A DNA stretch of 64,000 bases from Candidatus Cloacimonadales bacterium (GCA_963662275.1 OY759316.1:1152001-1216000), one strand, 5' to 3'; shown: positions 7,034 to 58,255, counted from the first letter of the stretch. Translations and numbers: made by a program. Notes: generated by a model from the sequence alone, not told the origin.

Positions 7034-7996
7034 ATGTTCACATGGTGGGAAAACATCACAAAATGGCTAGTTTACAGCGTTATTGGATTAGCAGATGGCA
7101 ATCGCTGGGCATCCGCATTACAGTTCTTTCTCTTTGATACGATCAAAATATTCATACTGCTCGCGGTTATAATTTTCGCAATTACATATATTCGAAGCTA
7201 CTTTCCGCCCGAAAGGACGAAGGCTTTATTAGCTAAACGGAAAGGCAGCACTTACATTGGGCATATCCTTGCAGCATTGTTGGGGATTGTAACACCTTTC
7301 TGTTCCTGTTCGGCAGTGCCGTTATTCATTGGTTTTGTTGAAGCAGGAATTCCTTTGGGTGTGACCTTCACATATCTTATCTCAGCTCCCATGGTGAATG
7401 AAGTGGCGTTGGGAATGCTGTGGGTTCTTTTCGGCTGGAAGATAGCTTTAATCTACATTGTGAGCGGTGAAGTCATCGCAATTGCGGCAGGAATTGTCCT
7501 CGGTCGCATGAAGTTGGAAATGTACATTGAAGAATCAGTCTTTGAAATGAAAGTCGGTGCAAGCTGTGAATGTACTCCTAAACAATCCGATCGTTTCATA
7601 GATGCCTGGCGCTTTACGATCGATTTGATCAAAAAAATATGGATATATGTAGCCATCGGTATCGGCATCGGCGGTATCATGCACGGCTGGGTTCCAGCGA
7701 ATGCTTTAGCTGTCTATGCGGGTAAAGATAATCCCTTTGCTGTGTTCATTGCTGTCTTGATCGGTATTCCGCTCTATTCCAATGCAGCCGGAGTGATCCC
7801 ATTGGTCAGTGAATTGACCCGTGCCGGTGTGGCGATGGGAACAGCCCTGGCTTTCATGATGGCTGTGACAGCGTTATCACTTCCCGAAGCAATCCTGTTG
7901 AGAAAAGTACTGAAACCAAAATTATTAGCTATCTTCATGGGCATCGTTGGATTGGGGATTGTGTTTACGGGGTATTTGTTCAACTGGATAATGTGA
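7034..7996 (+). CDS. ArsP/DUF318 family permease
   Basis: TPFCSCSAVP, ISAPMVNE and ALSLPE motifs; multiple TM segments. Confidence 0.85.
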   Translation: MFTWWENITKWLVYSVIGLADGNRWASALQFFLFDTIKIFILLAVIIFAITYIRSYFPPERTKALLAKRKGSTYIGHILAALLGIVTPFCSCSAVPLFIGFVEAGIPLGVTFTYLISAPMVNEVALGMLWVLFGWKIALIYIVSGEVIAIAAGIVLGRMKLEMYIEESVFEMKVGASCECTPKQSDRFIDAWRFTIDLIKKIWIYVAIGIGIGGIMHGWVPANALAVYAGKDNPFAVFIAVLIGIPLYSNAAGVIPLVSELTRAGVAMGTALAFMMAVTALSLPEAILLRKVLKPKLLAIFMGIVGLGIVFTGYLFNWIM

Positions 7997-8002
7997 TGCA
8001 AA

Positions 8003-8090
8003 AGGGAACAGGGTACAGCGTACAGGGTACAGGGTACAGAGAGCAGTCTGGTTCCCCTCCCATTTGTAAAGGGAGGGGTTAGGGGAGAGC
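8003..8090. repeat. Heptamer run (agggtac) followed by a cccctccc/gggagggg palindromic element
   Basis: Direct reading; the palindrome resembles 24497-24541. Confidence 0.7.
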
Positions 8091-8194
8091 TAGTTCTGAT
8101 CTGTCGTTTATGAAGTCCATTTGCCCTTTTAGACTGTGTTAATTAATAGCTTTATTTGGGAAATTGAACTCCAAAATCTTATCAGGAGTAAAAG

Positions 8195-8893
8195 ATGATA
8201 GGAAACATATTTAATGCATTGTATACAGCTTTGTATGGCAATATGGCATTAGCTATACTTGCAGCCTTTTTGTGGGGTCTGGCAAGTATCTTGCTCAGCC
8301 CCTGCCATCTATCCGGTATTCCACTGATGGTTGCCATGCTCACTGGAAAGAGAGTGCTGACGGTGAAACAAGCCCTGAAGCTTAGTACTTTATTTGCCAT
8401 AGGTGTATTATTCAGTTTTCTGATTATCGGGATTGTAACTGCATTATTGGGACGCATGATAGGTGATTTGGGCAGCCACGCCAATCTTATCTTTGGCATA
8501 GCCATGTGTATTGGCGGGATCCTTCTATTGGATGTCATTCCATTTGGCTCAGTTTCTCTGGTTTCCAAGGTTAAAATTGATGGCACCAAGCCATTCACCA
8601 TATTCCTGGTTGGTTTGTTATTCGGTATGGCATTGGGTCCATGCGCTTTTGCCTTCATGGCACCGGTATTGACATTAGTTTTCAGTTTGGCAGAAACCAA
8701 ACTCTTGGCAGCAATTGCTATTACTGTTTCCTACGCTATTGGGCATTGTCTGGTCATTGTCTTTGCAGGCACGTCAGTTGGTTTTGTGCAAAAATTATTG
8801 AATTGGAATGAAGGTTCCAAGGGGTTGAGTATGATGAAAAAAGTCTGCGCAGTCCTCGTGATTGCTGCAGGTATATATCTAATCTTTAAATAA
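8195..8893 (+). CDS. ccdA: Cytochrome c biogenesis CcdA family protein
   Basis: SILLSPC and ALGPC cysteine motifs, about six TMs. Confidence 0.8.
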   Translation: MIGNIFNALYTALYGNMALAILAAFLWGLASILLSPCHLSGIPLMVAMLTGKRVLTVKQALKLSTLFAIGVLFSFLIIGIVTALLGRMIGDLGSHANLIFGIAMCIGGILLLDVIPFGSVSLVSKVKIDGTKPFTIFLVGLLFGMALGPCAFAFMAPVLTLVFSLAETKLLAAIAITVSYAIGHCLVIVFAGTSVGFVQKLLNWNEGSKGLSMMKKVCAVLVIAAGIYLIFK

Positions 8894-8904
8894 AGGAGTT
8901 CATT

Positions 8905-9135
8905 ATGATTATCAAAGTATTGGGAAGCGGATGCAGTAAATGCAAGAAACTGGAAGAAAACGTACGCAAGGCTGTTGCAGAGAAAGGTCTGGAAGCAACT
9001 GTAGAAAAAGTCACTGATTTGAAAGTAATCATGAGCTATGGAGTGATGAGTACTCCGGCTCTGATCATCGATGAAAAAGTTGTTTCAGCAGGCAGATTGC
9101 TCAGTGTCTCTGACGTAGTTAAGTTACTAGGATAA
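8905..9135 (+). CDS. Small redox-active disulfide protein (thioredoxin_3 family)
   Basis: IKVLGSGCSKC...YGVMSTPAL. Confidence 0.9.
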   Translation: MIIKVLGSGCSKCKKLEENVRKAVAEKGLEATVEKVTDLKVIMSYGVMSTPALIIDEKVVSAGRLLSVSDVVKLLG

Positions 9136-9145
9136 AGGAGTCAAA

Positions 9146-9535
9146 ATGGCTAAATGTAATTGTGAAGGCGGCTGTGCTTCCAGTACATCGAACAAATCTG
9201 TCTTCGCCTGCTCCGGAGCGAGTAATGTTGGCAAGTTATCATATGACTTGGCAATCGAACTGCATAAGATAGATAAGTACAAAATCAGCTGTGCTATTGG
9301 AGTTGGAGCAGATATAGGTGGATTTATCAACGAAGCTAAATCTGATGATAATACTAATCTCTTGATCGATGGCTGTCCTGTTGGATGCTTGAAGCATATG
9401 TTCGATAATAAGGGCATAACAAATTATGACCATATTGTACTTACTGAAATGGGTATCAAAAAAGATGGTACGTTAAAGTATGATAGTGAAGTATTGCCAA
9501 GATTAATTAATGAAATTGAAGAGATGGGGTTATAA
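9146..9535 (+). CDS. DGC-domain putative zinc-binding protein
   Basis: ACSGASNVG and IDGCPVGC. Confidence 0.85.
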   Translation: MAKCNCEGGCASSTSNKSVFACSGASNVGKLSYDLAIELHKIDKYKISCAIGVGADIGGFINEAKSDDNTNLLIDGCPVGCLKHMFDNKGITNYDHIVLTEMGIKKDGTLKYDSEVLPRLINEIEEMGL

Positions 9536-9937
9536 ATGAAAAAACTAATGATCATATTAAGTGCGATCATGATAGTCGGTTCCTTGTTTTGTGTTACACC
9601 GACAGTTGTTAAAGCTAAAGTTAAAGCGAAAGCAAAGCCTCAGGTTACATTTATCGAACTTGGTTCCGTGAACTGTATCCCCTGTAAGCAAATGCAGCCT
9701 GTGATGAAGGAAATCGAAACAACATACGGAGATAAAGTGCAGGTCGTGTTTTATGATGTCTGGCAGCCGAAAGATAAGGATAAGGCTGCCAAATATAAGA
9801 TTAAACTGATACCTACTCAAGTCTTTCTGGATAAAGATGGTAAGGAATTTTCCAGGCATGAAGGTTTCTTTCCTAAAGAGGAGATCATGAAACTAATCGA
9901 TCCTAAACTTGGTATCAAGAGAACTGCAAAAAAGTAA
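9536..9937 (+). CDS. Exported thioredoxin family protein
   Basis: Signal peptide, CIPC, cis-Pro LIPTQVF, RHEGF. Confidence 0.85.
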   Translation: MKKLMIILSAIMIVGSLFCVTPTVVKAKVKAKAKPQVTFIELGSVNCIPCKQMQPVMKEIETTYGDKVQVVFYDVWQPKDKDKAAKYKIKLIPTQVFLDKDGKEFSRHEGFFPKEEIMKLIDPKLGIKRTAKK

Positions 9938-9959
9938 GATATAACATATAGATGGGTAT

Positions 9960-10340
9960 ATGAAAAGGATATTGATAGTATTGAGTTTGCTCGTTATATT
10001 TCATGCTTTGTATGGTGTAAGCAAAACGGCACCCCAAAATACGAAGCAACCACAAGCTAAACCGCTAATTACATTCGTGGAAATTGGCTCTGTGAATTGC
10101 GTTCCCTGCCGACAGATGAAACCTGTGATGAAAGCAATCGAAGAGAAGTATACCGGTAAAGTGAAAGTTGTGTTCTATGATGTGAATAAACAAAGAGCAA
10201 AAGCAAATGAGTATTATATCAAACTCATACCAACCCAGGTATTTTTAGACGCTAAAGGAAAGGAATTCTGGAGGCATGAGGGCTTCTATCCACAAAAGGA
10301 TATAGAAAAGCTGATCGATGAGAAATTAGCAAAGAAATAA
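9960..10340 (+). CDS. Exported thioredoxin family protein (paralog of the preceding gene)
   Basis: Signal peptide, CVPC, LIPTQVF, RHEGF. Confidence 0.85.
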   Translation: MKRILIVLSLLVIFHALYGVSKTAPQNTKQPQAKPLITFVEIGSVNCVPCRQMKPVMKAIEEKYTGKVKVVFYDVNKQRAKANEYYIKLIPTQVFLDAKGKEFWRHEGFYPQKDIEKLIDEKLAKK

Positions 10341-10353
10341 ACTCGAGGTCATA

Positions 10354-11415
10354 ATGAAGAAGAATATCAAGAAGAACGAAGGGATAGGTTTTTTTGAAAA
10401 GTATTTAACGCTTTGGGTTATCCTATGTATGGCTGCGGGAGTACTAATTGGCAGATTCCTTCCGGGGATTCCCGCTTTCCTGGGACAGTTTGAATATGCC
10501 AAAGTATCTATTCCAATTGCCATCCTGATTTGGCTGATGATCTATCCTATGATGATGAAAGTGGACTTTGCCAGTATCAAAAATGTTGGAAAGAACCCCA
10601 AGGGATTGTATGTGACCTGGGTAACCAATTGGCTGATCAAGCCATTCACGATGTATGCCATTGCCTGGTTTTTCTTCTTTATCGTGTTTAAATCACTCAT
10701 ACCTGCCAATCTTGCGAAGGATTACCTGGCAGGAGCAATCTTACTCGGGGCAGCACCATGTACAGCGATGGTCTTTGTCTGGAGTCATTTGACAAAAGGT
10801 GATCCGGCTTATACAGTTGTACAGGTTGCAACCAATGATTTGATCATCCTGGTTGCTTTTACACCAATCGTAGCATTTTTGCTTGGTGTCAGTGGCATTA
10901 CCATTCCCTGGAATACATTGTTACTTTCTGTATTACTGTTTGTCGTTATTCCTCTTGCCGGTGGTATAATAACACGTATGATTGTTATCAAACGCAATGG
11001 TGAGGAATACTTCAATAAGAGCTTTATTACCAAATTCAATCATGTTACTGTTGGTGGGCTGCTATTGACACTGATCATCATATTTGCATTCCAGGGTGAT
11101 ATCATTCTTCATAATCCGCTGCATATTCTCCTGATCGCAGTGCCATTAACCATTCAAACCTTCCTAATCTTCTTCATAGCCTATCTGGCAAGCAGGAAAC
11201 TGAAACTTGCATACAGCATTGCAGCACCAGCAGGTATGATCGGCGCATCCAATTTCTTTGAATTATCTGTGGCAGTGGCAATTTCCCTGTTTGGACCCAC
11301 TTCTCCTGTTGCTCTGGCGACAATAGTGGGTGTTTTGGTGGAAGTACCTGTCATGCTAACGCTTGTAAAGATAGCGAATAGCACTCAACATTGGTTTCCT
11401 GCACTAAAACAGTAG
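10354..11415 (+). CDS. acr3: ACR3 family arsenite efflux transporter
   Basis: FFEKYLTLWV, GAAPCTAMVFVWS, SNFFELSVAVA, GVLVEVPVML. Confidence 0.95.
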   Translation: MKKNIKKNEGIGFFEKYLTLWVILCMAAGVLIGRFLPGIPAFLGQFEYAKVSIPIAILIWLMIYPMMMKVDFASIKNVGKNPKGLYVTWVTNWLIKPFTMYAIAWFFFFIVFKSLIPANLAKDYLAGAILLGAAPCTAMVFVWSHLTKGDPAYTVVQVATNDLIILVAFTPIVAFLLGVSGITIPWNTLLLSVLLFVVIPLAGGIITRMIVIKRNGEEYFNKSFITKFNHVTVGGLLLTLIIIFAFQGDIILHNPLHILLIAVPLTIQTFLIFFIAYLASRKLKLAYSIAAPAGMIGASNFFELSVAVAISLFGPTSPVALATIVGVLVEVPVMLTLVKIANSTQHWFPALKQ

Positions 11416-11615: not shown

Positions 11616-13476
11616 GAGACTGTTCATGAAGTTATTCATAATATTCAATAAGTTAGAAAGTAGCAAGTTGAAAAAAGTGGTCGAAACGGTCATAATTTAA
11701 CATACCTTCCAGAATTGACAGATAAGCTCTGCTAAGGACACCAAATCACAAGTTAAGCTTTTTGACTAAAATTGAAAAACACGCGATTATAAGTAATGTT
11801 TCGAAGCCGTTTCTGACTAAATGTGTAGTTAAAATCATATAAAATAGTTCTTTACAAGTTTTTTGCTATAGCTTCAATGGCATTTGTTACCTGGTAACAA
11901 AAGGGAGGATATTATGACAAAAAAACACTCCAATTCAAGAAGCGGTAAGTGTTAGTCATGAAAGTAACCAATACCATGTAAGTATTAACGTACCATTTTC
12001 ATTCACTTTGCCTGAGACAACATCAAACCACAAGTTCTTAATAGCGTTTCTACGCTTATTAGTAGGAATAGGCGGAGACAACCTCCTTACACTTCAGCAA
12101 ATAGCTGATCTGTTTAACTACGCAGACCGCAGGAATGTACATAATTTCTGGCAAGAGTTTGAGCAGCATGGTCATGATATCCTGGCATATTTAAGCCGGA
12201 AAGTTGACCTGCTGGAGTGTATTCCTCAGATCGAGAATTTTGTTATCAATAACCTGCTTTTACCTTTAAATGTCATGTATCAGGAGTTCATCAGCCATCA
12301 TGATTTTAAAATGTCCTATACCACTTTCTGCAAATATGCTTCTCAGGTCAATTCTCTGTCTGTAGTTAAGCAAGCTCAGAAGCTTCTTCTGAAAAAGACA
12401 GTAGGCGGTGATGCTGTACATCTGCTGAAACTGCTTGCCGGTCAGCAGAATACACCTGTTATCTGTGACAGACTCCTGGAACAAATGAAGACTGCTAAAG
12501 GCAATACATCCCATAGAACCGCCGATGCAAAGCCGTTCCATAGTCTGGAACGCAAGAACCTGTGTCTGCTGGTACATTACCTGGTTGGAAGCGGTATGAA
12601 CTTCGAGACGATAGCTTTGCTGCTCAACACCTGTAAAGCTACAGTCTCAAATCTCTGGCATGAAATCGCTGACCTGCAGAGCCTGATTCTGAACTCAATC
12701 GGTAAGTGGAGCGGAAAGATCAGCATTGATGAGAAATATGTGAAGATCAAAGGTATTCCGTACTATGTCATCAGTATTGTTGATTTTGTGACTCACATCC
12801 CTCTGTTTTGTGAGTTGTATCCTGACACAAAGAAAGAATCATTCGAAGCATGTTTCAGAACCTTCAGACAGCTCTACAGGAAAGATCCAACCCTGATTGT
12901 CAGTGATGGCAGTAAATCGTTAGCAGTTGCAAGAAAAACAGTGTTTCCAAAAGTCCATTACCAACTCTGTAAGTTCCATAAGATACGAAATCTCTTCAAA
13001 AGAATCAGTCAATGTCATCTCCCTGAAGACAGGGACAAGTTCTTTAAGAAGAGGATTATGAAAGCTTTCCGAAGAGAAACGGCGGGCGGAAGGAAAAAGG
13101 GTATCGCAAGCCTGACAGCTATTACTCCCCCAACCGCCGCCGAATACATCAAAAGCAATATCATTAGTGATTGGAGACACCTCAGCAAAGGTTTGACTTC
13201 CAATGTCTCTGAACGCTGGAACCGCAAAATCAAGAAGGTGACATCCGGTAGATTTGGACTAAAATCTGAAGAAACCACCCGCAACCTTGTGTTTTCGCTT
13301 TGGTTCAAAGAACTGGTCGATAAAGGTCAACCAATCATGCGTCAGGAATCACTTTTAGCAAGTTTAAATATCTCCCGCATATGTCAAGAAAATGTGGATT
13401 GGTCGCACTTAGACCACTTTTTCTCTGTCACTACCAATAAGGCTGCGTAAAATGGAGGTTAATTTTGAACAGTCTC
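11616..13476 (+). mobile_element. Insertion sequence, 1861 bp, DDE type (IS6/ISH6-like, family uncertain)
   Basis: 11-bp terminal inverted repeats GAGACTGTTCA (11616-11626) and TGAACAGTCTC (13466-13476); 8-bp direct repeat CATTAACA at 11608-11615 and 13477-13484. Confidence 0.9.
12008..13450 (+). CDS. DDE transposase; the true start is probably 11914 across a frameshift
   Basis: ISIDEKYVKIKG, IVSDG, YQLCKFH, TSNVSERWN. Confidence 0.85.
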   Translation: MPETTSNHKFLIAFLRLLVGIGGDNLLTLQQIADLFNYADRRNVHNFWQEFEQHGHDILAYLSRKVDLLECIPQIENFVINNLLLPLNVMYQEFISHHDFKMSYTTFCKYASQVNSLSVVKQAQKLLLKKTVGGDAVHLLKLLAGQQNTPVICDRLLEQMKTAKGNTSHRTADAKPFHSLERKNLCLLVHYLVGSGMNFETIALLLNTCKATVSNLWHEIADLQSLILNSIGKWSGKISIDEKYVKIKGIPYYVISIVDFVTHIPLFCELYPDTKKESFEACFRTFRQLYRKDPTLIVSDGSKSLAVARKTVFPKVHYQLCKFHKIRNLFKRISQCHLPEDRDKFFKKRIMKAFRRETAGGRKKGIASLTAITPPTAAEYIKSNIISDWRHLSKGLTSNVSERWNRKIKKVTSGRFGLKSEETTRNLVFSLWFKELVDKGQPIMRQESLLASLNISRICQENVDWSHLDHFFSVTTNKAA

Positions 13477-15102: not shown

Positions 15103-15202
15103 GTGTTAGGTTCTAGGTTCTAGGTGTAAGGGGCAGAGAAGATTTTTTCCACCAAATACCGGAATACTATACTGAATATTAATATTGATTATTACTAAAG
15201 AT

Positions 15203-15229
15203 AAGCCCCGATAACGATCGGGGCTTTTT
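15203..15229 (+). terminator. Intrinsic terminator
   Basis: aagccccgat-aacg-atcggggctt followed by Ts. Confidence 0.7.
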
Positions 15230-15324: not shown

Positions 15325-15389
15325 CTAGCACCTAGCACCTAGCACCTAACACCTAACACCTAGCACCTAGCACCTAGAACCTAAGACCT
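15325..15389. repeat. Heptamer tandem repeat (cctagca/cctaaca)
   Basis: About nine units; inverted counterpart at 15100-15130. Confidence 0.85.
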
Positions 15390-15428
15390 TCTGCTTGACA
15401 AAAACCTCATCATCACTGAAAAGGAATT

Positions 15429-15568
15429 CACGCCGAGTGGCAGGTTCTAAACTACATAGCATGAACTGTCACCGATAGGGTATAACGGGAAACGGTTATA
15501 CCTCCCTTTGGAAAGGCGGGACAGAAATAACAGGACTGTCTTGCCTCCACGCATAAACATGGAGGTAA
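15429..15568 (+). ncRNA. Moco/Tuco-type riboswitch (P3-less) with translational expression platform
   Basis: P1 cgcc/ggcg; P2 gtggcag/ctgtcac with a ctaa..atg receptor-like segment; P4 ggtataac/gttatacc capped by GAAA; cctccctttggaaagg 3' motif as in the E. coli moaA leader; anti-SD ttgcctcca/tggaggtaa; TTGACA at 15395. Confidence 0.8.
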
Positions 15569-15569
15569 C

Positions 15570-16403
15570 ATGAAAAAGCTACTATTACTAACTCTCACAA
15601 TTGCAATGCTCTTTGTGCTTTTCGGATGCAGCGAAAAGGATAAGAGTCCCACGAAGGTTTATGGCTATAAACTGGATCAGTTCATTTCAAAAACAGCAGT
15701 ATTTGATTCTACTACTCATTCAACTTCTATGGCTGATTCAGTCGAAATTCGTAATCTTTACGCTTATGAAATTGTCAGTGCTGATTCTGATCACTGGAGT
15801 CCTCGTACTGCTACTTCTACAGCAGGATATGATTTATCTTGGAACCAGTTTAAGAATGGATTCTATATGCCCTCAGATGCTAATCTGATATCGTGGTTTC
15901 CGAATACTACTCTCCCTGGAGCTTTTAAAGTTAAACGTGTCGGTTTCTTCAGATTATATCGAAAAATAGATGTAACTGCTTCTGACGGTTCAACAAAGAT
16001 GGTCGAATTGAAGAGTTTACCTTTGTTTCCCATCGATAATTGGAATCATGTACAGGAAAATGCGATTAAATTAAGTGATTTAGTACAGGGAATTGCAGCT
16101 TATGATTCACTGAAAATGGTGGGAGTAGATGGTTTTTCACGTACATATAGTTCTGCACAAATTGCGGATGGTTACTACTTGTTAGATTCAGAAGTAACTA
16201 CTTTCCCATTACTTAATGGAACTACACTCACTCCTGGAATATGGAAAGTAAAGAATCTGGCTTATATAGATGTTATAGGTGTCTCTTCACCTCAATCCTT
16301 TACATTCATCAATGCTCTTGAAGAAACAGCAGATATGATCTTTCTGATGCCTTCGAGCATGAATAGTTATACAACAACAGATGTTACCGGACTATCGAAG
16401 TAG
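15570..16403 (+). CDS. Lipoprotein with a degenerate molybdopterin-binding-like C-terminal domain
   Basis: Lipobox LFGC; IKLSDLV...VGVDGF...WKVKNLAYI. Confidence 0.7.
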   Translation: MKKLLLLTLTIAMLFVLFGCSEKDKSPTKVYGYKLDQFISKTAVFDSTTHSTSMADSVEIRNLYAYEIVSADSDHWSPRTATSTAGYDLSWNQFKNGFYMPSDANLISWFPNTTLPGAFKVKRVGFFRLYRKIDVTASDGSTKMVELKSLPLFPIDNWNHVQENAIKLSDLVQGIAAYDSLKMVGVDGFSRTYSSAQIADGYYLLDSEVTTFPLLNGTTLTPGIWKVKNLAYIDVIGVSSPQSFTFINALEETADMIFLMPSSMNSYTTTDVTGLSK

Positions 16404-16413
16404 TAAATCACTC

Positions 16414-16968
16414 ATGTGGGATAAATTCTTTCGCAGGTTCAGTACACATGATCTGCTTTTAATATCGTTATTCAGCGCTTTGGGATTGGCGATTAAACCA
16501 ATCGTCACTCCCTTGGTGCACTTGATCTCCATGCCGCTAATGATTCCAGGCGGTTCTCTTGCTGGCGGGTTTTATATGATGTGGCTGGCTATGGCAGTTG
16601 CTTTAATACCGAAATTTGGAACAGGGTTTCTTGTTGGAATCGTTCAAGCCCTTTCAATTCTGGTCTTAGGTATTACCGGAAGTCATGGGATAGTATCGAT
16701 CATCAGTTATTCTCTCCCAGGTTTATTGATAGACATTTGTGCTCTTATGATTAAACATAGAGCCTGTTTATGGGCACAAATTCTATTCGTGATCATCGCT
16801 AATGTAACAGGTACGATCATGGTGACGCTACTAATCATGCGATTATCAATCATACCGGCTATGATTGCTCTAACCAGTGCTGCTATATCCGGGTGTCTTG
16901 GTGGTTTGCTTTCTTTTTGGTTGATTAAAAAAATGATTGCATATCATTTAGTTACTATTGAGGATTGA
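16414..16968 (+). CDS. ECF transporter S component
   Basis: About 185 aa, six TMs, DLLLISLFSALG start and PKFGTG; ECF A and T genes nearby. Confidence 0.8.
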   Translation: MWDKFFRRFSTHDLLLISLFSALGLAIKPIVTPLVHLISMPLMIPGGSLAGGFYMMWLAMAVALIPKFGTGFLVGIVQALSILVLGITGSHGIVSIISYSLPGLLIDICALMIKHRACLWAQILFVIIANVTGTIMVTLLIMRLSIIPAMIALTSAAISGCLGGLLSFWLIKKMIAYHLVTIED

Positions 16969-16971
16969 ACT

Positions 16972-17940
16972 ATGCGTAATGTTGTTTTAAGTTTGATAAT
17001 AATACTTGCAATGTGTCTGCCATCCATTCTAATTGGCTGGGTAGTAACCAATTCAGATGGAGGTACGAAAGTGTTTACAAATGACAGCTTTTCTAAGCTG
17101 CCTATGATTGAAGTAAAGACAGAACGGGATAAGAAGGGACAGCATCTTTCTGATCAATGGAAAGGATTTCTTCTTCAGGATTGGCTGGAGAAGAATGGTT
17201 ATACTGATTTCGGTGAGATTATTTTGGAATCTTCAGATCATTACCAGGTTCGATTATCTAAAGATGATTTGGTCAAACAGGAAGCATTGATAGCGATATT
17301 CCAAAATAATCAGCCACTTGAGCAAAAGGATATACGCCTCATACTTCCCGCTATGCGAGATATGTACTGGATTACGAACATTTCAAAGATTACACTTCAG
17401 GATAAAGATCAAGCCAACATTCCCAGTTGCATATATTGGGCAGAACCGATTATTCATGCCAAACAGCTAAGAACTGATATCGTACCATTCAAGGATATGA
17501 AGGGTTATGCTTTTACGGATTTACTTGAACCCAATATTCCCTTCCCTGATGGCGATGTCTTAGTGATGGGCAAAGATGGAGTCAGGCATCTATTGGATTA
17601 TCGCAAATTCTTAAAAAAGGCAGTACTGGAAAAGACAGAAAGCGAAGGTTATTGGCTCAAAAGTCCGGATATGCCAGCAGGAATGTGGATTAAGAACATC
17701 GCTTATGTTCAATTCAGTAAAACAGGTATACTTTTCAAAGAGGCTTTTCAGAAGAAATCATTACAGGATTTAGCTGATATGCTTCTCTGGAAGAATGTGA
17801 CTGCCTTCATACCTATTGAAAAAGATACACCGGCTAATGAGATCAAGTCATGGGAAAACAAGGAATTAAAATTACAAATGATAAACTTGTCGAACGCTCT
17901 AATTACTCATTATCCATCGATTCAACTGAAGGTCAAATGA
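16972..17940 (+). CDS. Exported protein with two oxidoreductase-molybdopterin-binding-like repeats
   Basis: WKGFLLQDWL..SSDHY..RLILP..YWITNISKI and KGYAFTDLL..GKDG..MWIKNIAYV. Confidence 0.7.
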   Translation: MRNVVLSLIIILAMCLPSILIGWVVTNSDGGTKVFTNDSFSKLPMIEVKTERDKKGQHLSDQWKGFLLQDWLEKNGYTDFGEIILESSDHYQVRLSKDDLVKQEALIAIFQNNQPLEQKDIRLILPAMRDMYWITNISKITLQDKDQANIPSCIYWAEPIIHAKQLRTDIVPFKDMKGYAFTDLLEPNIPFPDGDVLVMGKDGVRHLLDYRKFLKKAVLEKTESEGYWLKSPDMPAGMWIKNIAYVQFSKTGILFKEAFQKKSLQDLADMLLWKNVTAFIPIEKDTPANEIKSWENKELKLQMINLSNALITHYPSIQLKVK

Positions 17941-18398
17941 AGAAATTAGTTGTGATTATTCTTATTACTTTCGCATTGCTCTTGTTGTGGTCGAAACCAT
18001 TGCCTTTGTATATAGATGGTTCTCAGAATCCTATGATCATTCATAATACGAATCTTGGTGACTTTGTTCAGACTCAAATACCTTTCGTGAAAGCTGCTCT
18101 TATCGTAGGTTCTGATTCAATAGCTGTTGGAGTAACTGCAGATGAATTCGGAATGATAAGTTTAAAGTATGAAAATAATGAGTGGTTTGTAGAAAACGAT
18201 TCCCTGCCTTCACCAGCCAATATCAGGGACATTTCTAAAATCTATTTGTATAATCCATTTGCTTCAGTTACATCATCCAGTGATTCAAATCGTTTTCAAT
18301 TCACGGACATAAGGAATAATGCAGATTTTCTCGGACAGGCAGAAAAGAATGGTTATATTATCTGGAAATATCGTATTCATCAAGGAGTTAATAAATGA
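17937..18398 (+). CDS. Exported hypothetical protein, weakly similar to the same domain
   Basis: ATGA overlap with the upstream gene; signal peptide; LIVGSD...NIRDISKIYL. Confidence 0.6.
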   Translation: MKKLVVIILITFALLLLWSKPLPLYIDGSQNPMIIHNTNLGDFVQTQIPFVKAALIVGSDSIAVGVTADEFGMISLKYENNEWFVENDSLPSPANIRDISKIYLYNPFASVTSSSDSNRFQFTDIRNNADFLGQAEKNGYIIWKYRIHQGVNK

Positions 18399-18835
18399 AA
18401 CCAATTCCCATATTACTTATCGGCCTTGTATTAATCCTGACAGCATTAGAGCTATGTTCCAAACAAATCATACCAAGTACAGGAATTATTCAAATCGTCA
18501 CCGAAAAGAAAACATACAATATAGCTGATCATATCTTTCAAAGACAAATGACCCAAAAAGTCAAAGCTAAACGAGGTTCGGTATGGCATGGAGTGTATCT
18601 TGCCAAATTCTTTACGGAGAATGGATTCGATGTTAAAAAATATCAGCAATGCACTTTGGTGGCAAAAGATGGAATGCGGATCACGATTCCGATGGATGAA
18701 ATTACCGATAACCAGGCATTTATTACTTTTGTGAAAGATAAGAAAAGCGGTAAGTATGATTTGAAACTTATCATGCTGCAGGACTCTTTTGAGCAGCGTT
18801 GGCTGAAATATATTGTTCAAATCATACTGGAATAA
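18395..18835 (+). CDS. Exported molybdopterin-binding-like domain protein
   Basis: WHGVYLAKFF..LVAKDG..LKLIM..RWLKYIVQI. Confidence 0.7.
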   Translation: MKPIPILLIGLVLILTALELCSKQIIPSTGIIQIVTEKKTYNIADHIFQRQMTQKVKAKRGSVWHGVYLAKFFTENGFDVKKYQQCTLVAKDGMRITIPMDEITDNQAFITFVKDKKSGKYDLKLIMLQDSFEQRWLKYIVQIILE

Positions 18836-19530
18836 GAGTGTCATCATCTTCTTCACTTGAACTGATTGATTTATCTTTCCAATATCACAAAGAATATGAC
18901 TGGTTATTCAGAAATCTGACATTTCAATTTGAAAAGGGCAGCATTACTGCAATAACCGGTCCCAATGGCAGTGGTAAAACAACGTTACTTTATACAATCT
19001 GCGGAATCATTCCGCTGTTGTTTAAAGGAAATCTGCAAGGTCAGGTGAATTACTCTGATAAGGACATTTCCAAATATTCTTTACCCCAACTTTCGAAATG
19101 GATGAATATACTGCTGCAAGACCCAAATTATCAATTAGTGTTTCCAATTGTTGAACAGGAAATTGCATTTGGAGCTGAGAACTTGTGTTTACCTGTTTCT
19201 CAAATCGAGAAAAGAATTTGTAGAAACCTCAATCTCCTGGGAATCGAGGATTTACGCTTTGCCCACACCGCTGAATTATCCTATGGTCAAAAAAAGATGG
19301 TTTCGCTTGCATCCTTATTAGTAATGGAAAGCCAGATTCTGATCCTGGATGAACCTTCAGCCGGATTGGATGAATATGCATGTGAACTGCTAAAGACTCT
19401 GCTGCTGAATTTATCCGCTGAGGGAAGAATCATTATCTTTGCAGATCATAATTCCGAATTAGTGCAAATTGCTCATCACCGGATTACTATGCCGTATTTT
19501 TTGAACAAGGTCGATACTGATGATCTATAA
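18799..19530 (+). CDS. ECF transporter ATPase (EcfA/CbiO-like); start uncertain
   Basis: GPNGSGKT, QDP..VEQEIAFGAEN, LSYGQ, LDEP. Confidence 0.9.
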   Translation: MAEIYCSNHTGIRVSSSSSLELIDLSFQYHKEYDWLFRNLTFQFEKGSITAITGPNGSGKTTLLYTICGIIPLLFKGNLQGQVNYSDKDISKYSLPQLSKWMNILLQDPNYQLVFPIVEQEIAFGAENLCLPVSQIEKRICRNLNLLGIEDLRFAHTAELSYGQKKMVSLASLLVMESQILILDEPSAGLDEYACELLKTLLLNLSAEGRIIIFADHNSELVQIAHHRITMPYFLNKVDTDDL

Positions 19531-20179
19531 TCTGCAAAATATCAGTTATGGCTATGTTCCTGGAAAGCTTATCCTGGATGAAATAAGCATGATTATCATG
19601 GAGAACGAGATCACTCTACTCACAGGAATCAATGGTTCGGGGAAAACAACTTTCTGCAGATTATTAACAGGTCTCATATCTGCTTATCAAGGAATAATCT
19701 CCTTGGAAAATAGTGATTTAAAGAACTATCAACCATATCAGATTGCTGAAAAAGTACTATATCTCAAACAGGAAGGTATTCAAAACATCGTTGCAGCTAC
19801 ACCTGGTGAAGACCTAATGATTCGACAAAGAAAATTCGTTCAGAAGGATAATACAACTTTTGAAAAAGCCAGGGAAGAGGCTCTTAAAAGTGTTGATCTT
19901 GTTCATCAAAAGAATATTCCAACCTGGGAAATGAGCGCAGGGCAGGTAAAACGGATTGGTCTTGCTACCTTATCGCTATTCACTTCATATTATTGGATAC
20001 TGGATGAGCCATATCTTGGTCTGGATACTAATTTGATAATGAAACTAAAGAAACAGCTTTCTGAGAGAAAAGAACAAGGATATGGAGCGATGATCGTTAA
20101 TCATTTGGATATTTCAGATGATTTTCAATACGATGCACACTATCATTTGAAAAATGGAAAGTTGATTAAAGTATGTTGA
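19520..20179 (+). CDS. Second ECF transporter ATPase
   Basis: GINGSGKT, MSAGQ, LDEP. Confidence 0.85.
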   Translation: MIYNLQNISYGYVPGKLILDEISMIIMENEITLLTGINGSGKTTFCRLLTGLISAYQGIISLENSDLKNYQPYQIAEKVLYLKQEGIQNIVAATPGEDLMIRQRKFVQKDNTTFEKAREEALKSVDLVHQKNIPTWEMSAGQVKRIGLATLSLFTSYYWILDEPYLGLDTNLIMKLKKQLSERKEQGYGAMIVNHLDISDDFQYDAHYHLKNGKLIKVC

Positions 20180-22098
20180 ATAACAACCTGTTTTTTCCGT
20201 TAATCTGTATTTTAACGATTTCATCACTTTATGCTGATACTATTGCAGGTAGAGATACGATAGCGAAGGATAGTTTACAAATCAGGCATTACACATTGGA
20301 TGCGCTGCGTGTTATTGGTGAGAAACCAAGTGAAACGATTGGGTCAGTCAATATTACTAATATTGATTATGCAAATCAACCCGGTCTGCAAAATGTGAAA
20401 GATGCTTTAACAAACTTACCCGGTATCAGTATGACTGTTGGTTCAAAGGATGAAAGTAATTTACGTATCCGGGGTTTTCGAAAGAACGAAGTGAAAATAT
20501 TGTTGGATGGAAGACCTCTCAATGCAGGATATTTCGGGAATGTTAATCTCCAAAACCTGCCAGTTTCAGGTATCAGTGAAATCCAGGTATTGAAAGGACC
20601 AGTTTCTTCGATGTATGGCAGTAATACTTTGGGTGGTGTTGTTAATTTAATTACCAGGGATCCTTCAACAAGAAAATGGTTCAAATTGGGCATGAGCGTT
20701 AAAAGGAATAATACAAATCATTTCGAGTTATCTACTTCTCATCGATTCGAAAATTGGAACTATTGGTTGTTTGCTTCTCTTGAGCACAGCGATGGCTTTC
20801 TTCTTCCAAAAGACTTTCAAGCAACTAATTCAGAGAATGGTGGTGTTCGTGATAATGCCAGCAAAACCCAAGAGCTTGTGGAAGTTAAAAGCACATGCAA
20901 TATCACTGATTTTCACATGATCACTTTTACCGCAGGGGTTGCCAGTATTCCTACAAAGTATTTGCCATCATCCATTTATGAAACTAAATATCGACTTTAT
21001 AAAGACTATCAACGCCTGGAAGGCACAATTCGCAGCAATCTTCAGCTTTCACCTGGTTGGAAGCTGGATTCCATGCTCTATTTGGATGGTGGAAAGGACA
21101 CATATCAAGAGTTTAATGACCCCAATTTCCATCATATGGCAATGGATTCTGATATGAAGAATTTCACTATTGGATTTACACACCGCGCTAATTTGCAGAT
21201 GCAGGATGGAAGCGAGTTGAGCATTGGATATCGGGGTGAAAGGCAATTCAGCAATCGGAAGGATAATGGAAACTACCCAACCTGGACAGATCATTCCACA
21301 ATGCTGCATAATCTCTTTTCCCAGGTGGAATGGAAAGTATCCCAGCCATTGACTGTTACTGGCAGTGCTGGGGCTTCCTATTTCTCAAAAGATGTTGAAA
21401 AAAGTAATGCCCTGTTATTCGAACCTTCCCTGGGGGTTTACTATGAGTTTCCAAATCACGCTTCATTATCTTTGGCTGCAGGTAGAAATACGGCTTTTGG
21501 AACGATGAGACAGTTATTTAGTGTAGAGAATGGCAACATCAATTTACGTCCCCAGGTTAGCATGAAATATGAAATTACTGGTAAAAAGCCATTCCTGCTG
21601 AATACTGCAAATGGACTTCTAAGCTTGAGTCTTTATTTGAATGATGTGAAAGACTTAATCGATATTCATGGAAATACCTATCAAAATATCTATAAAGTGC
21701 GTTCTTACGGTGGTGAATCGGATTTGGAAATAGCACCCTATTCCTGGTGGAATATGACTTATTCATATTGCTATCTCGATTATGCCGATTTAAGCAGCTA
21801 TCGTTTGACTGAAAGCCCCAGAAATACGGTTGGATTGAACTGGACTTTTCTTTTACCCGTAAGAACGAAAGTCACTGTTTCTTCAAATTGGGAAGATATG
21901 CGTTTCAGTGAAGATTCAAATTTCCAATATCATCATTTGGACTCATACTGGGTACATAATCTCGCGTTGAAAAAGGAATGGCGTGATTTTTCAATAACCT
22001 TTGGCTTAGAGAACTTCACAGATACTAATTACCAGGAAGAATACGGCTTCCCTGCACAGGGAATCAACTTCTGCTTTGGTTTAGAGAAGGAATTCTGA
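20173..22098 (+). CDS. TonB-dependent receptor
   Basis: Plug motifs IRGF..ILLDGRP, VLKGPVSSMYGSNTLGGVVNLIT; ENFTD..Y and terminal F. Confidence 0.92.
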   Translation: MLNNNLFFPLICILTISSLYADTIAGRDTIAKDSLQIRHYTLDALRVIGEKPSETIGSVNITNIDYANQPGLQNVKDALTNLPGISMTVGSKDESNLRIRGFRKNEVKILLDGRPLNAGYFGNVNLQNLPVSGISEIQVLKGPVSSMYGSNTLGGVVNLITRDPSTRKWFKLGMSVKRNNTNHFELSTSHRFENWNYWLFASLEHSDGFLLPKDFQATNSENGGVRDNASKTQELVEVKSTCNITDFHMITFTAGVASIPTKYLPSSIYETKYRLYKDYQRLEGTIRSNLQLSPGWKLDSMLYLDGGKDTYQEFNDPNFHHMAMDSDMKNFTIGFTHRANLQMQDGSELSIGYRGERQFSNRKDNGNYPTWTDHSTMLHNLFSQVEWKVSQPLTVTGSAGASYFSKDVEKSNALLFEPSLGVYYEFPNHASLSLAAGRNTAFGTMRQLFSVENGNINLRPQVSMKYEITGKKPFLLNTANGLLSLSLYLNDVKDLIDIHGNTYQNIYKVRSYGGESDLEIAPYSWWNMTYSYCYLDYADLSSYRLTESPRNTVGLNWTFLLPVRTKVTVSSNWEDMRFSEDSNFQYHHLDSYWVHNLALKKEWRDFSITFGLENFTDTNYQEEYGFPAQGINFCFGLEKEF

Positions 22099-22859
22099 TG
22101 CAGGAAGAAAAGGACAACCGGCTAAACCCGGAGCTACGACTAAATACCAGGACGAAAATACTGATGGTTGTCACCCTCTCTTTTCTTGCCCTACTATACA
22201 GCCAGGTTTGGATACTTGCCATATTGACCTGTATTTCCTTACTCCTTTACATCATTGGAAAAAGGCGATCTTCTTCTAATCATTCTAAAAGCAATTTCAA
22301 ATCTCTATTGATATTAATATTCAGTCTTATGTTCATTCAAATCCTATTCCGACCTGCAGGCACGTTATTATGGCATTGGGGAGTTGTTCGCATTTCAATG
22401 GAAGGAATCAACTATGGCGTTGCTGCTTCTTTCAGAATACTGATCATCTTCCTTTCTGCTGGATACTTGCTGAGTATTTCCTATTATGAATATCTAATGG
22501 CGTTCCGATCCTGGAGACTCCCGTATGAACTATCTTTCCTCATGGCTTCCGTGCTGCAATTCCTGCCTATTCTAAGAAGGGAATTTCAATTAGTGGGAGA
22601 AGCACTCACTTTACGCGGTATAGAATTGGGGAGATTACCTTTATTGAAGAGATTAAATGCCTACCAGGAGCTTGTTTTCCCAATACTGGCTAGAGCAGTT
22701 TCTTCACTAAAGTTTCGTGTAATCTCTCTCGAAATGAGAGGTTTCCGACTTTCTAATAAACGTACTGCATTGCATGAAGATCATTTGAAGATTATTGATT
22801 ACATGGTGCAGGGCGGTCTTGTATTTATCATCACAGTCTGTTTTTACCTGAAGATTTGA
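22098..22859 (+). CDS. ECF transporter transmembrane T component (EcfT/CbiQ-like)
   Basis: LNTRTK start, QFLPIL, LRG and LEMRGF motifs. Confidence 0.88.
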   Translation: MQEEKDNRLNPELRLNTRTKILMVVTLSFLALLYSQVWILAILTCISLLLYIIGKRRSSSNHSKSNFKSLLILIFSLMFIQILFRPAGTLLWHWGVVRISMEGINYGVAASFRILIIFLSAGYLLSISYYEYLMAFRSWRLPYELSFLMASVLQFLPILRREFQLVGEALTLRGIELGRLPLLKRLNAYQELVFPILARAVSSLKFRVISLEMRGFRLSNKRTALHEDHLKIIDYMVQGGLVFIITVCFYLKI

Positions 22860-23755: not shown

Positions 23756-24472
23756 CTAATTTCCTATCAGTCTTCTCACATATCTTTGTCCATATTCATA
23801 TGCATCGGGGGTATCAATATCCAGCCATTGTAATGGATTTAGTATTTTCACAGCTTGCATTCGCTGATTTTGAATCAATACCTGGATAGCACCGCTGATT
23901 GATTCACTTCCTCTGGTTAGAGCTGATTCAACCGCTGTAAAGAAATCTTCTTCCAAGCGGAAAACTCCACAGTCTATGCCGTTGTAAACAGCAATTTCCT
24001 TACCGATATGAATGATTTTATTACCTTCACAGAAAACTTTAGTGGCATCGTCTATATCGTGAATGCTGTCACACCAGGGATCCACCAGGAGCAGGTTGAT
24101 CTTACCAGGGGCATTCACAATACTCTTCAGGGCATCAACAGCTACAATATGATCGGACATGGAAAGAATGAAACTTTCATCCTGTACGTAATCCCTTGCT
24201 TTATACACAGACAAGCCGTTACCGCGTTCCCATTCCAGGTTTTCGATGAATGTTATCGGTACTCCAAGATCAGTTTTTTCAATGTAGTCTCGGATATATC
24301 TCTGATTAAATCCCACTACAATCCCGAATTCAGTAACACCGGATAGTTTGAGCTGATGAATAATCGTGGAAAGAATCGAACCACCCGCATAGGGGAGAAG
24401 CGTTTTTGGAACTTGGTTACTGAGGTTCCACAAACGACTTCCGAAACCGGCTGCTATAATGACTGCTTTCAT
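23756..24472 (-). CDS. Nucleotidyltransferase, inositol-1-phosphate cytidylyltransferase (IPCT)-like
   Basis: AAGFGSRL..PK, GNGLS, FILSMSDH, DATKV, IGK, DCGVF, WLDIDT match the IPCT pattern as I recall it; ino1 upstream. Confidence 0.75.
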   Translation of the reverse strand: MKAVIIAAGFGSRLWNLSNQVPKTLLPYAGGSILSTIIHQLKLSGVTEFGIVVGFNQRYIRDYIEKTDLGVPITFIENLEWERGNGLSVYKARDYVQDESFILSMSDHIVAVDALKSIVNAPGKINLLLVDPWCDSIHDIDDATKVFCEGNKIIHIGKEIAVYNGIDCGVFRLEEDFFTAVESALTRGSESISGAIQVLIQNQRMQAVKILNPLQWLDIDTPDAYEYGQRYVRRLIGN

Positions 24473-33670: not shown

Positions 33671-34474
33671 TTACTCAATTTCTGCAGTTCTCAAAATACG
33701 GACAAGTTCCGACATCCCCTCCTTAAAATGACCAGAACTGAGATCAAACCATTGCAACTTACTCAAAACATGCTCTTCATGATTTGGTAGCAACTCCATA
33801 ATCTCGTTAAGATCAACTAGCGATACTAGCAAAATACTCTGTCGTTGTGATTTTTGTATCGTTCCAATTGAGTCGACTATTTCCTTAAGACAAAATGGGT
33901 TTTCAAAAAATGCTCTGTTGATCAGTAATAAAACGTAGCCATTTTGGATGAAATATTCTAAAGTCATTGCAATTGAGTTAATCCAATCAGATTTTGTATG
34001 ATTATCGTGATTGTAATAGATACTAAAACCTTCATGAGAGAGGTAATCAATTATTTGATGGGCTATTTCGATATCTTGATTTGAGTAGGATAGAAATATG
34101 GTTGCACGTTTTGATAAGCGAGTGAGTTTGTATTGTTCGAACTGAAGACCTCTTTCTAGATTAATTGTTTCAACAACCTTTCCTTCCTTTTCCATCGACT
34201 TTACTAAGTTCATTTCTCTCATAACAGACTTAGAACTCTGAGCATCTGGACTATCACAGATTAAAAACCATTCACGAGCTCTGATTTCACGTTCAATAAG
34301 TTTCCAAAGCAATTCATCATCTGATTCTGTATCCTCCATGCATTTGAGGTAGAATAATACAGGGTTGTGACCTAAACTTTCAAGTTCGTTTCTTATCTCA
34401 CGAACCTTCTCAATATCCTTATTTGAATGAGAAACGAATATCCAAGCTCCTGAACCATTGTTTGGTGTATTCAT
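33671..34474 (-). CDS. Tandem TIR-TIR domain protein
   Basis: WIFVSHSNKD...VMRE and IFLSYSNQD...FCLKE. Confidence 0.8.
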   Translation of the reverse strand: MNTPNNGSGAWIFVSHSNKDIEKVREIRNELESLGHNPVLFYLKCMEDTESDDELLWKLIEREIRAREWFLICDSPDAQSSKSVMREMNLVKSMEKEGKVVETINLERGLQFEQYKLTRLSKRATIFLSYSNQDIEIAHQIIDYLSHEGFSIYYNHDNHTKSDWINSIAMTLEYFIQNGYVLLLINRAFFENPFCLKEIVDSIGTIQKSQRQSILLVSLVDLNEIMELLPNHEEHVLSKLQWFDLSSGHFKEGMSELVRILRTAEIE

Positions 34475-34520
34475 TTCAAATCTCCAATATCTTCACTAAA
34501 ACATATCCTGCCTAACTATC

Positions 34521-34775
34521 TTACAAAAAAAAAGGACGGCATTTGTTGATTTCATCCAGGCATAGCTTCAGTGTTTCTTTGCGAGTATTCTGTTCTTCAT
34601 TAATCCCCCAGCGCAAATCTACTTCAGTCAATTCCACATGTCGTTCTCTGCAGAAGCTACGCAGTTCCGGCCAACAGTGGCTCATGAGTTCATTACGCTC
34701 TTCCATCATATCACGGAAGGTGGAAGAGACAAAGATACGGATACTACGGTTATCGGATTTCAGGTTATCTGGCAT
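34521..34775 (-). pseudogene. Truncated DUF4062-domain gene
   Basis: IRIFVSSTFRDMMEER..VDLRWG..CLDEINKCRPFF, then a stop after a T9 run; the LLGxRYG motif is missing. Confidence 0.75.
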
Positions 34776-34799
34776 ATTGCCCTCCTTCAATGAATCGTA

Positions 34800-56667: not shown

Positions 56668-57138
56668 ATGGATAATACAAGTTTAGATTTTAACTCCCGG
56701 AAGCATGACGTTTTGAGTAAAGCAGTAATAAATCAATTCGTTCCAAAGTTTATGCCGGATGCGGTTTTAGTTTATTCCACTCTAGCAATTGATTCTCCTG
56801 AGCTCGATAAAAATCTTCAAGTTAAGTTATGTATTCCAACTGACAATTCTCAGACATTACCTGATATTATTTTATATAAATCTGATTCCAACTGGCTAGT
56901 ATTAATCGATTTGATTACCAAGCATGGAACAATGGATAGTAATCGATGCAATGAACTGATTGAAGTGTTTAAAGATACTCCTGCAGAATTGGTTTTGGTA
57001 AATGCATATCGTAATAAAAAGGAAATGAATGAGTCTCAAACTGATTTAGCCTGGGGAACAAATGCCTGGTTTGCCGAAGAACCGGAACATATGATACATT
57101 TTGATGGAAATCACGTTGTAGAACCGTACAAGAAGTGA
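56668..57138 (+). CDS. Stand-alone BsuBI/PstI restriction-endonuclease C-terminal domain
   Basis: H..L.KAVI..FVPKF, LPDIILY, WLVLIDLITKHG, AWGTNAWFAEEPEHMIHFDG. Confidence 0.75.
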   Translation: MDNTSLDFNSRKHDVLSKAVINQFVPKFMPDAVLVYSTLAIDSPELDKNLQVKLCIPTDNSQTLPDIILYKSDSNWLVLIDLITKHGTMDSNRCNELIEVFKDTPAELVLVNAYRNKKEMNESQTDLAWGTNAWFAEEPEHMIHFDGNHVVEPYKK

Positions 57139-57294
57139 CTATTCAGTAATTTCTTCTTTTTTACTTCTTGACGTTTTTTTCCTATAGTTCGATTTGTTTA
57201 AAAATTCTTTTGATAGATTTACAGGCAATGAATATGATATAAAATCGGTGGGAGGATAAAATGCAGTTCATTACAATCAATAATCTTAATCACA

Positions 57295-58242: not shown

Positions 58243-58255
58243 TAAAGGAGCTTGC

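Follow-up and report, generated by a model that had tools for sequence, protein, structure and literature searches.

A gene cluster in Candidatus Cloacimonadales bacterium, led by a riboswitch for the molybdenum/tungsten (Mo/W) cofactor, probably serves to take up the pyranopterin cofactor of Mo/W enzymes. It lies in a 64,000-nucleotide stretch of DNA (GCA_963662275.1, OY759316.1:1152001-1216000; hereafter the window, with positions counted from its first letter) of a source genome that comprises 1 contig of 4.38 Mb and is rated 99.97% complete. Nine closely packed or overlapping genes follow each other on the plus strand (15570-22859) in the order A, S, B, C, D, EcfA, EcfA', TonB-dependent receptor, and EcfT, and they form one operon behind the riboswitch. 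We assign a probability of roughly 60% to the reading that this operon encodes an envelope-spanning salvage importer for the tungsten cofactor (Tuco), the molybdenum cofactor (Moco), or a close derivative. We favor it because it accounts for a cofactor-sensing RNA, a multiplied pterin-binding fold stripped of its cysteine, a vitamin-type importer with its receptor, a MobB-like partner, and cofactor-dependent enzymes without a biosynthetic pathway, and it fits better than the other explanations that we considered.

In such an importer, lipoprotein A and the TonB-dependent receptor would capture the cargo and carry it across the outer membrane, the Cys-less proteins B and D (possibly also C) would bind it in the periplasm and hand it on, and S together with the energy-coupling factor (ECF) module EcfA/EcfA'/EcfT would transfer it to the cytoplasm. 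Its handling for aldehyde:ferredoxin oxidoreductases (AORs) may then fall to a MobB-like protein whose gene lies at another locus of the genome, and plentiful cofactor would make the riboswitch stop translation. We infer all of these binding and transport steps as well as the identity of the cargo, and the route from A to the ECF module is drawn from gene order and fold. The original prediction, made from the window's DNA, had already proposed that four exported, non-catalytic cofactor-fold proteins serve an ECF importer for an Mo/W pterin cofactor. Its main thrust, which leaves aside the conjecture that these proteins protect the labile cofactor, is supported by the riboswitch, the loss of the pathway, the complementary distribution of MoaC, and operons with MobB and phosphodiesterase genes, whereas the membership of C in this fold did not hold up beyond a suggestive likeness.

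Riboswitch and transport machinery

The aptamer at 15419-15534 (plus strand) was found in an Rfam scan as a match of 67.7 bits to the full model (positions 1-135) of RF01055, with a gathering score of 36 and an E value of 6.7e-15, and the 4.38 Mb genome contains no other. The aptamer stops 35 nt short of the A start codon, and its alignment lacks the P3 hairpin of the model. This P3-less variant of the RNA family correlates with tungsten-cofactor metabolism, which is a correlation and not a binding result (Regulski 2008, PMC2408646). Sequence reading and a computed fold place the probable expression platform at 15535-15569 on the same strand, where CCTCCA (15544-15549) can base-pair with TGGAGG (15560-15565); the latter contains the ribosome-binding site and lies 4 nt ahead of the ATG. 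The computed fold of 15415-15585 has an energy of -50.4 kcal/mol (z -4.2) and shows the nucleotides immediately ahead of CCTCC paired with the aptamer's 3' side. We consider it plausible that the element acts as a translational OFF switch.

Riboswitches of the same family precede the operon in 7 of the 9 relatives' loci that were scanned, the two misses being L037 and the minimal locus L043. In the order, 138 genomes reach a completeness of 90% or more, and RF01055 is present in 106 of them; a comparison by eye places it on the strand of B, no more than 3.5 kb ahead of that gene, in at least 39 genomes. The same RNA also precedes AOR genes in relatives (10 genomes) and NAD-type aldehyde dehydrogenase genes (PF00171, 515-556 aa) at four loci in three genomes: L094 11376-13001 (minus strand), L096 7537-9207 (minus), L097 837-2384 (plus), and L098 11522-13150 (minus). 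By analogy to B12 riboswitches in front of B12-independent isozymes, these dehydrogenases may be a cofactor-independent backup for the tungsten aldehyde oxidoreductase. The presence of the riboswitch before the operon, AOR genes, and aldehyde dehydrogenase genes suggests one regulon around cofactor supply for aldehyde oxidation.

The transport genes themselves are those of an ECF system and an outer-membrane receptor. S (16381-16968), a membrane protein of 195 aa, is assigned as the substrate-capture component by its match to PF09819 (40 bits, cut-off 25.2); it has 20 invariant columns in 37 homologues, and no solved S component was matched at E ≤10, either by the protein or by its profile of 37 rows. 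The two ATPases are EcfA (18799-19530; ABC_tran, 92.5 bits), whose best NCBIfam matches are cbiO and ECF_ATPase models, all under the equivalog cut-offs, and EcfA' (19520-20179; ABC_tran, 74.7 bits). The transmembrane coupling component EcfT (22098-22859) matches PF02361 CbiQ with 69.4 bits (cut-off 25). Between the second ATPase and EcfT lies the TonB-dependent outer-membrane receptor (20173-22098) with a Plug domain (81.2 bits) followed by a beta-barrel (OMP_b-brl_3, 37.5 bits). Its best NCBIfam likeness is a sub-threshold one to heme and B12 receptor families, and no substrate-specific NCBIfam model reached its cut-off. S, the two ATPases, and the T component thus stand in one operon, and their order is kept in relatives.

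The full order A-S-B-C-D-EcfA-EcfA'-receptor-EcfT recurs among the 20 phylum loci that were examined, and S adjoins B in 19 of them (16 read from the open reading frame [ORF] table and L047, L048, and L049 from search coordinates), with L040 as the exception. One family has a minimal S-B-EcfAA'-EcfT operon (L043, L044, L050) and keeps the A and receptor genes apart from it, as a pair that immediately follows a riboswitch (L093, L095), suggesting that A is functionally paired with the receptor. At three loci (L042, L046, L051), the C gene encodes 423-430 aa with a type I phosphodiesterase/nucleotide pyrophosphatase domain (PF01663) at the C-terminal end, and at two others of the phylum (L074, L079), a MobB homologue is found in the same locus as the B gene.

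Exported proteins with a cofactor-domain fold

Four proteins of the operon, A (277 aa; 15570-16403), B (322 aa; 16972-17940), C (153 aa; 17937-18398), and D (146 aa; 18395-18835), each open with a hydrophobic N-terminal segment and are putatively exported; the original prediction had claimed signal peptides for all four. A additionally carries an LFGC lipobox whose cysteine is invariant in 19 of 19 homologues.

B domain 1 and the C-terminal domain of A have the fold of the cofactor domain of sulfite-oxidase-family enzymes. B appears to consist of two tandem Cys-less domains (domain 1 at residues ~22-148 and domain 2 at ~149-258) and a short C-terminal part, and it matches PF00174 Oxidored_molyb with 31.2 bits (curated cut-off 24) over residues 52-148 and profile positions 60-166 of 169. 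Residues 17-145 of its predicted structure (built with 23 homologues; predicted local distance difference test [pLDDT] 80.6) superimpose on the pterin-binding protein PruR (7kom) with a Z score of 15.2 and a root-mean-square deviation of 2.3 over 120 of 134 residues in a VIA alignment, and Foldseek gave an E value of 5.6e-8. Residues 17-210 reach Z 13.2-14.5 with the sulfite oxidases and dehydrogenases 1sox, 3hbg, 2xts, and 1ogp, compared with ≤5.7 for unrelated chains. The model of A (pLDDT 84.5; predicted template modeling score [pTM] 0.80) shows the same likeness in its C-terminal half: residues ~127-238 score Z 11.0 and 10.6 with PruR (11.0 for 7kom) and 10.5 with SoxCD, against ~4 for unrelated chains, and residues 129-238 score Z 9.1-10.5 with sulfite-oxidase-family structures. 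Foldseek returned nothing for the A model at E 1e-3 or better, and its fold likeness is seen in the VIA alignment only. For these two domains, the proposed kinship to the sulfite-oxidase family, MsrP included, is confirmed by the comparison of folds, with Z 11-14.5 for B and 7-10.5 for A.

The remaining domains were placed by profile-profile comparison with hhalign, for which separate family alignments had been built from the relatives' loci. D is established as a single-domain homologue of B domain 1 (probability 98.8%, E 1.1e-16, 109 columns), and residues 133-235 of A align with D at 68.6%. Domain 2 of B aligns with domain 1 at 66.7% (E 5e-5) and C with B domain 2 at 62.7% (E 7e-5), while controls against the S protein gave 0.1-0.2%. 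For B domain 2 and for C, these sequence comparisons are suggestive of membership in the same fold family, which is probable for B domain 2 and possible for C. Simpler searches had been less sensitive: BLASTP among the five proteins gave a best E value of 0.05 and was uninformative, PF00174 had no match in A, C, or D at E ≤1, C and D have no Pfam matches of their own, no NCBIfam family scored above its cut-off for A, B, C, D, or S, and C had no usable match in the ESM Atlas. An iterated jackhmmer search on a small ORF set merged B, C, and D; it was discounted for possible profile drift, and hhalign was preferred. The recurring motif that had been described for all four proteins is literally present (as WxGxxLxDxL and WxxN[IVL]xx[IVL]) in B only, with copies at residues 63 (WKGFLLQDWL), 133 (WITNISKI), and 239 (WIKNIAYV), whereas A, C, and D contain loose versions.

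None of the four proteins has a cysteine between the signal region and the W-x-G position, in line with what had been noticed before. The cysteines that do occur are C20 of the lipobox in A, C15 (signal region) and C153 in B, and C21 and C86 in D, with none in C; no cysteine is invariant or nearly invariant among 23 B homologues, and positions 1-59 of the PF00174 profile, where the Mo-ligating Cys hairpin would sit, are unmatched in B. The closest characterized relative is PruR, for which several structures are available (7kom, 7kp2, 7rkb, and 7kou/7kos; PMC11194511). In the PruR of A. tumefaciens, the pterin is sandwiched by Y104 and W160 and receives a hydrogen bond from N102 (PMC11194511). 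A profile alignment of marginal likeness (profile E 0.007) sets two invariant residues of B, D89 and Y91, opposite the Asn and Tyr, respectively, of the PruR LNxY motif. This alignment with 7kom ends before the pterin-site Trp of PruR, and W133 of B instead aligns with the Trp of a sulfite dehydrogenase (RLVVPG...YW motif). By eye, the position of the pterin-site Tyr is Met in D and Val in B domain 2.

The genome encodes a second exported sulfite oxidase (SUOX)-like protein, P0174 (L001 1387-2079, minus strand), a lipoprotein of 230 aa that matches PF00174 with 94 bits at positions 5-169. It has Ser at the position of the Mo-ligating Cys of YedY, and its gene adjoins smpB and a thiol peroxidase gene rather than that of an MsrQ partner.

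Cofactor demand and distribution of the operon

The organism seems to run cofactor-dependent enzymes without making the cofactor. Its genome has tungsten-type AOR genes, with AFOR_N matched twice; one match belongs to a gene of 720 aa that has both AFOR_N and AFOR_C and is preceded by a 4Fe-4S ferredoxin gene. Pfam profiles searched over six-frame translations did not find MoaC, MoeA_N, MoaE, or the MoaA C-terminal domain, each of which was found in 11 of 14 control genomes by the same kind of search. Neither did searches with SBP_bac_11 and PBP_like_2 find a recognizable binding protein of the ModA, TupA, or WtpA type; their matches are a thiamine-type binding protein and PstS/PstC. The sole MoCF_biosynth domain belongs to CinA, and a weak N-terminal match to PF00384 (37.8 bits) falls into a NuoG/GltD-like frame of 1156 aa that was not counted as a molybdoenzyme. 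At another locus (L172 4320-6908, plus strand), genes for a MobB-domain protein (246 aa), a ThiF-family protein (203 aa), and a kinase-like protein (237 aa) stand in a row. Over its full length, this MobB-like protein shares 38-42% identity with MobB-like products of riboswitch-led operons from metagenomes.

Across 232 genomes of the phylum, AFOR_N was found in 166, S in 167, B in 152, MoaC in 15, and MoeA_N in 12, all 12 of which belong to the MoaC carriers. AFOR_N occurs without MoaC in 154 genomes, and S or B accompanies AFOR_N in 146 of the 166 genomes that have it, but MoaC in only 4 of 15. The distributions of the S/B transporter and of MoaC/MoeA in the phylum are largely complementary.

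The B family extends well beyond this phylum. A profile search over 1.84 billion representatives retrieved 742 clusters at E 1e-3 or better (76 at 1e-30 or better), including proteins of 350-674 aa with two to four repeats, most of them with PF00174. The four match sequences that were inspected all start with lipoprotein signals, and named matches in Bacillota and Clostridium carry the label "molybdopterin-dependent oxidoreductase", some being fused to FMN_bind. A metagenome scan with four B-profile proteins yielded 71 loci, of which 45 are at least 6 kb long; these 45 contain a B-like gene in 43 cases, an S homologue in 32 (E 1e-46 to 1e-62), a D homologue in 32, and EcfT in 20, and B directly adjoins S in 28. 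All 10 metagenome loci scanned for RF01055 have it directly 5' of the operon. In the Pfam-scanned loci, the gene after S encodes 460-510 aa with a PF01663 phosphodiesterase domain, EcfT is followed by a MobB-domain protein of ~250 aa and then by a kinase-like gene, and the first gene often encodes an FMN_bind protein. At one locus (L146), the operon is followed by a second riboswitch and an AOR gene.

Some metagenome loci contain additional importer genes. At Pfam-scanned L117, two B-like genes on one side and the S gene on the other enclose genes for a FecCD permease, an ATPase, a Peripla_BP_2 binding protein, and a DUF364/DUF4213 "heavy-metal chelation" protein; L118 and L133 show the same by gene order, and gene lengths and order in L115, L118, L120, and L133 are as in L117. 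This arrangement suggests that a further importer, resembling BtuCDF, belongs to the same regulon.

Turning to the surroundings of the operon in the window, its upstream side holds a UDP-glucose-dehydrogenase-like gene, a terminator-like hairpin at 15203-15226, and, two genes before the operon, a gene for a Mutator/MULE-type transposase of 480 aa (12008-13450, plus strand). Heptamer tandem repeats, TAGGTTC ×2.7 at 15107-15125 and CTAGCAC ×8.4 at 15325-15383, are by eye approximate reverse complements of each other and flank this hairpin just 5' of the riboswitch. An NTP_transferase/MobA-like gene at 23756-24472 was not tied to the operon, as it lies on the opposite strand among sugar-nucleotide genes. 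Further away, a plus-strand cluster at 7034-11415 encodes an ArsP-type permease, a DsbD-like membrane protein, a DGC-domain protein, two thioredoxins, and an SBF/ACR3-like carrier. On the minus strand at 33671-41401, a TIR-domain protein (267 aa), a RyR-domain protein (918 aa), and a DUF4062/AAA_16/TPR protein (1282 aa) form a row that looks like a defense-type island, and restriction-modification genes are found at 56668-59041.

Candidate cargoes, precedents, and implications

The operon might carry something smaller than the finished cofactor, namely a metal-free or dephosphorylated pterin fragment or precursor that is trimmed outside by a phosphodiesterase, imported, and then re-phosphorylated and metallated. 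This would follow the general logic of vitamin salvage, in which a compound is dephosphorylated outside the cell and re-phosphorylated inside. Many versions of the operon indeed carry an exported phosphodiesterase of the alkaline phosphatase superfamily fused to the C domain, and a kinase-like gene adjoins the MobB-like gene. The cleft of PruR-type proteins has moreover been described as too short for MoCo (PMC11194511). However, the C protein of the window is free of a phosphodiesterase domain, and the kinase-like protein of this genome has no BLASTP match to the kinase-like genes of the three metagenome operons compared (L111, L129, and L149). As MoeA_N, MoaE, MoaA/MoaC, and a tungstate/molybdate binding protein were not found in the genome, precursor conversion and metal insertion would proceed without a known catalyst, and we judge a trimmed pterin to be an unlikely cargo.

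The metal oxyanion is a less probable cargo still, with the system then acting as an ECF-type substitute for ModABC, TupABC, or WtpABC that imports tungstate or molybdate, free or chelated. The Mo/W-cofactor riboswitch regulon classically includes genes for oxyanion transporters (PMC2408646), a binding protein of the ModA, TupA, or WtpA type was not found in the genome, and the FecCD/Peripla_BP_2 importer and DUF364 protein share the cluster at some metagenome loci (Pfam-scanned for L117). Yet a cell can make no use of the metal unless it synthesizes pterin and has a metal insertase, and neither was found. The fold of the accessory proteins is one that binds pterins rather than oxyanions, and across the phylum, the transporter is largely complementary to MoaC/MoeA rather than coupled to them. 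A small anion should also need no TonB-dependent receptor. It is very improbable, finally, that the Cys-less domains are periplasmic pterin sensors or redox enzymes with a cofactor ligand other than Cys. PruR is a periplasmic pterin sensor with the same fold (PMC11194511), some distant B relatives are fused to FMN_bind domains, and P0174 illustrates a Ser in place of the Mo-ligating Cys of YedY. The operon, however, has no GGDEF/EAL partner, B lacks the N-terminal third of the enzyme domain with its Cys hairpin, and the adjacency of S and B in 19 of 20 phylum loci and 28 of 45 metagenome loci speaks for a role in transport.

Several observations weigh against pyranopterin salvage. The absence of the pathway rests on Pfam profiles over six-frame translations, which an unrelated replacement pathway would escape. 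Free cofactor is very labile, and AOR enzymes have a bis-pterin tungsten center whose assembly from an imported unit would have to proceed without MoeA. In the phylum, where related genomes are non-independent samples, S or B occurs in 4 of the 15 MoaC genomes, 27 genomes have S or B without AFOR_N, and 11 AFOR_N genomes are devoid of S, B, and MoaC; 8 of these 11 are at most 86% complete, while G152, G162, and G170 are 95-96% complete. The riboswitch is not universal either, since the full operon of L037 has no RF01055 match at the gathering score, and the minimal S-B-EcfAA'-EcfT operons of one family (L043, and G004 and G010 by position) have no adjoining riboswitch. B domain 1 is structurally as close to PruR as to sulfite-oxidase enzymes, and PruR is the one Cys-less relative that has been studied; its truncated cleft, which is without determinants for MoCo, accommodates small pterins other than Moco (PMC11194511), so that a smaller pterin may be the cargo.

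A broader version of the salvage hypothesis, for which we see slightly less than an even chance, is that most of the phylum and operon carriers in other anaerobes are Mo/W-cofactor auxotrophs that import the finished, metal-bearing cofactor by lipoprotein and TonB-dependent receptor, Cys-less carriers, and ECF module. That neither MoeA nor an oxyanion transporter was found argues for a metal-bearing cargo.

Individual parts of the operon resemble known systems. Like PruR, which is the top structural match to both B domain 1 (Z 15.2) and the C-terminal domain of A (Z 11.0), its binding-fold proteins are built from a small exported domain with a degenerate sulfite-oxidase fold that is missing the Mo-ligating Cys. 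PruR differs in being a single domain that binds monapterin-type pterins and is encoded beside the diguanylate cyclase-phosphodiesterase (DcpA-type GGDEF/EAL) that it regulates (PMC11194511), whereas the operon multiplies the domain (in A, twice in B, in D, and perhaps in C), places it among ECF and TonB neighbors, and is under the control of an Mo/W-cofactor riboswitch. With sulfite oxidase/dehydrogenase, SoxCD, and MsrP/YedY, the proteins share the cofactor-domain fold (Z 11-14.5 for B and 7-10.5 for A) and an RLVxPG...W motif, but not the Mo-ligating Cys hairpin, and a dimerization or heme domain was not found.

The transporter with S, two ATPases, and T in one operon is reminiscent of group I ECF importers like CbiMNQO/NikMNQO and YkoEDC (PMC5037267), from which it differs by the added exported binding-fold proteins and TonB-dependent receptor. 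The RNA belongs to the same family, in its P3-less form, as the regulon of Regulski 2008, whose described members are biosynthesis, oxyanion transport, and cofactor-using enzymes, with no cofactor importer named among them (PMC2408646). A precedent for living on finished cofactor from others is dietary Moco in nematodes (PMC7849362, PMC9793310), a case that differs in concerning an animal, in that the transporter is not known, and in that protein-bound cofactor is the bioavailable form. PruR-type proteins, group I ECF transporters, and the Mo/W-cofactor riboswitch have each been described already; their combination is new as far as we found in the literature. For the ECF part, YkoE is presumably a member of PF09819 like S, and to our knowledge, classic ECF systems have been described without soluble binding proteins.

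Among the publications listed on these subjects, supplements aside, we found no paper that joins PruR-type proteins, ECF transporters, and this riboswitch or that describes bacterial uptake of an Mo/W cofactor. The works listed on Moco uptake concern nematodes or are reviews, plus a speculative sentence on the type 11 secretion system (T11SS) in a preprint, and a bacterial importer is not among them; the string "molybd" has zero occurrences in the three phylum-wide Cloacimonadota papers that were listed. One review states that most organisms cannot take up Mo cofactor as a nutrient (PMC9026282). If the broader version with import of the finished cofactor is true, prokaryotes would have their first known uptake system for Mo/W at the level of the cofactor, and its ECF transporter would be the first to work with soluble binding proteins.

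Salvage would also resolve an oddity of the 2008 study, in which P3-less, tungsten-type RNAs in front of "putative sulphite oxidase" genes in Syntrophomonas wolfei were an unexplained exception (PMC2408646). For annotation, it would mean that many labels of "molybdopterin-dependent oxidoreductase" on Cys-less exported proteins are wrong. The Mo/W pyranopterin cofactor is usually seen as one that must be made, and an importer would overturn this view for an entire phylum of bacteria from anaerobic digesters and sediments. It would explain how their tungsten enzymes are run without a biosynthetic pathway, give ECF transport a new cargo and a binding-protein-assisted mode, and expose a hidden cross-feeding dependency in syntrophic communities.

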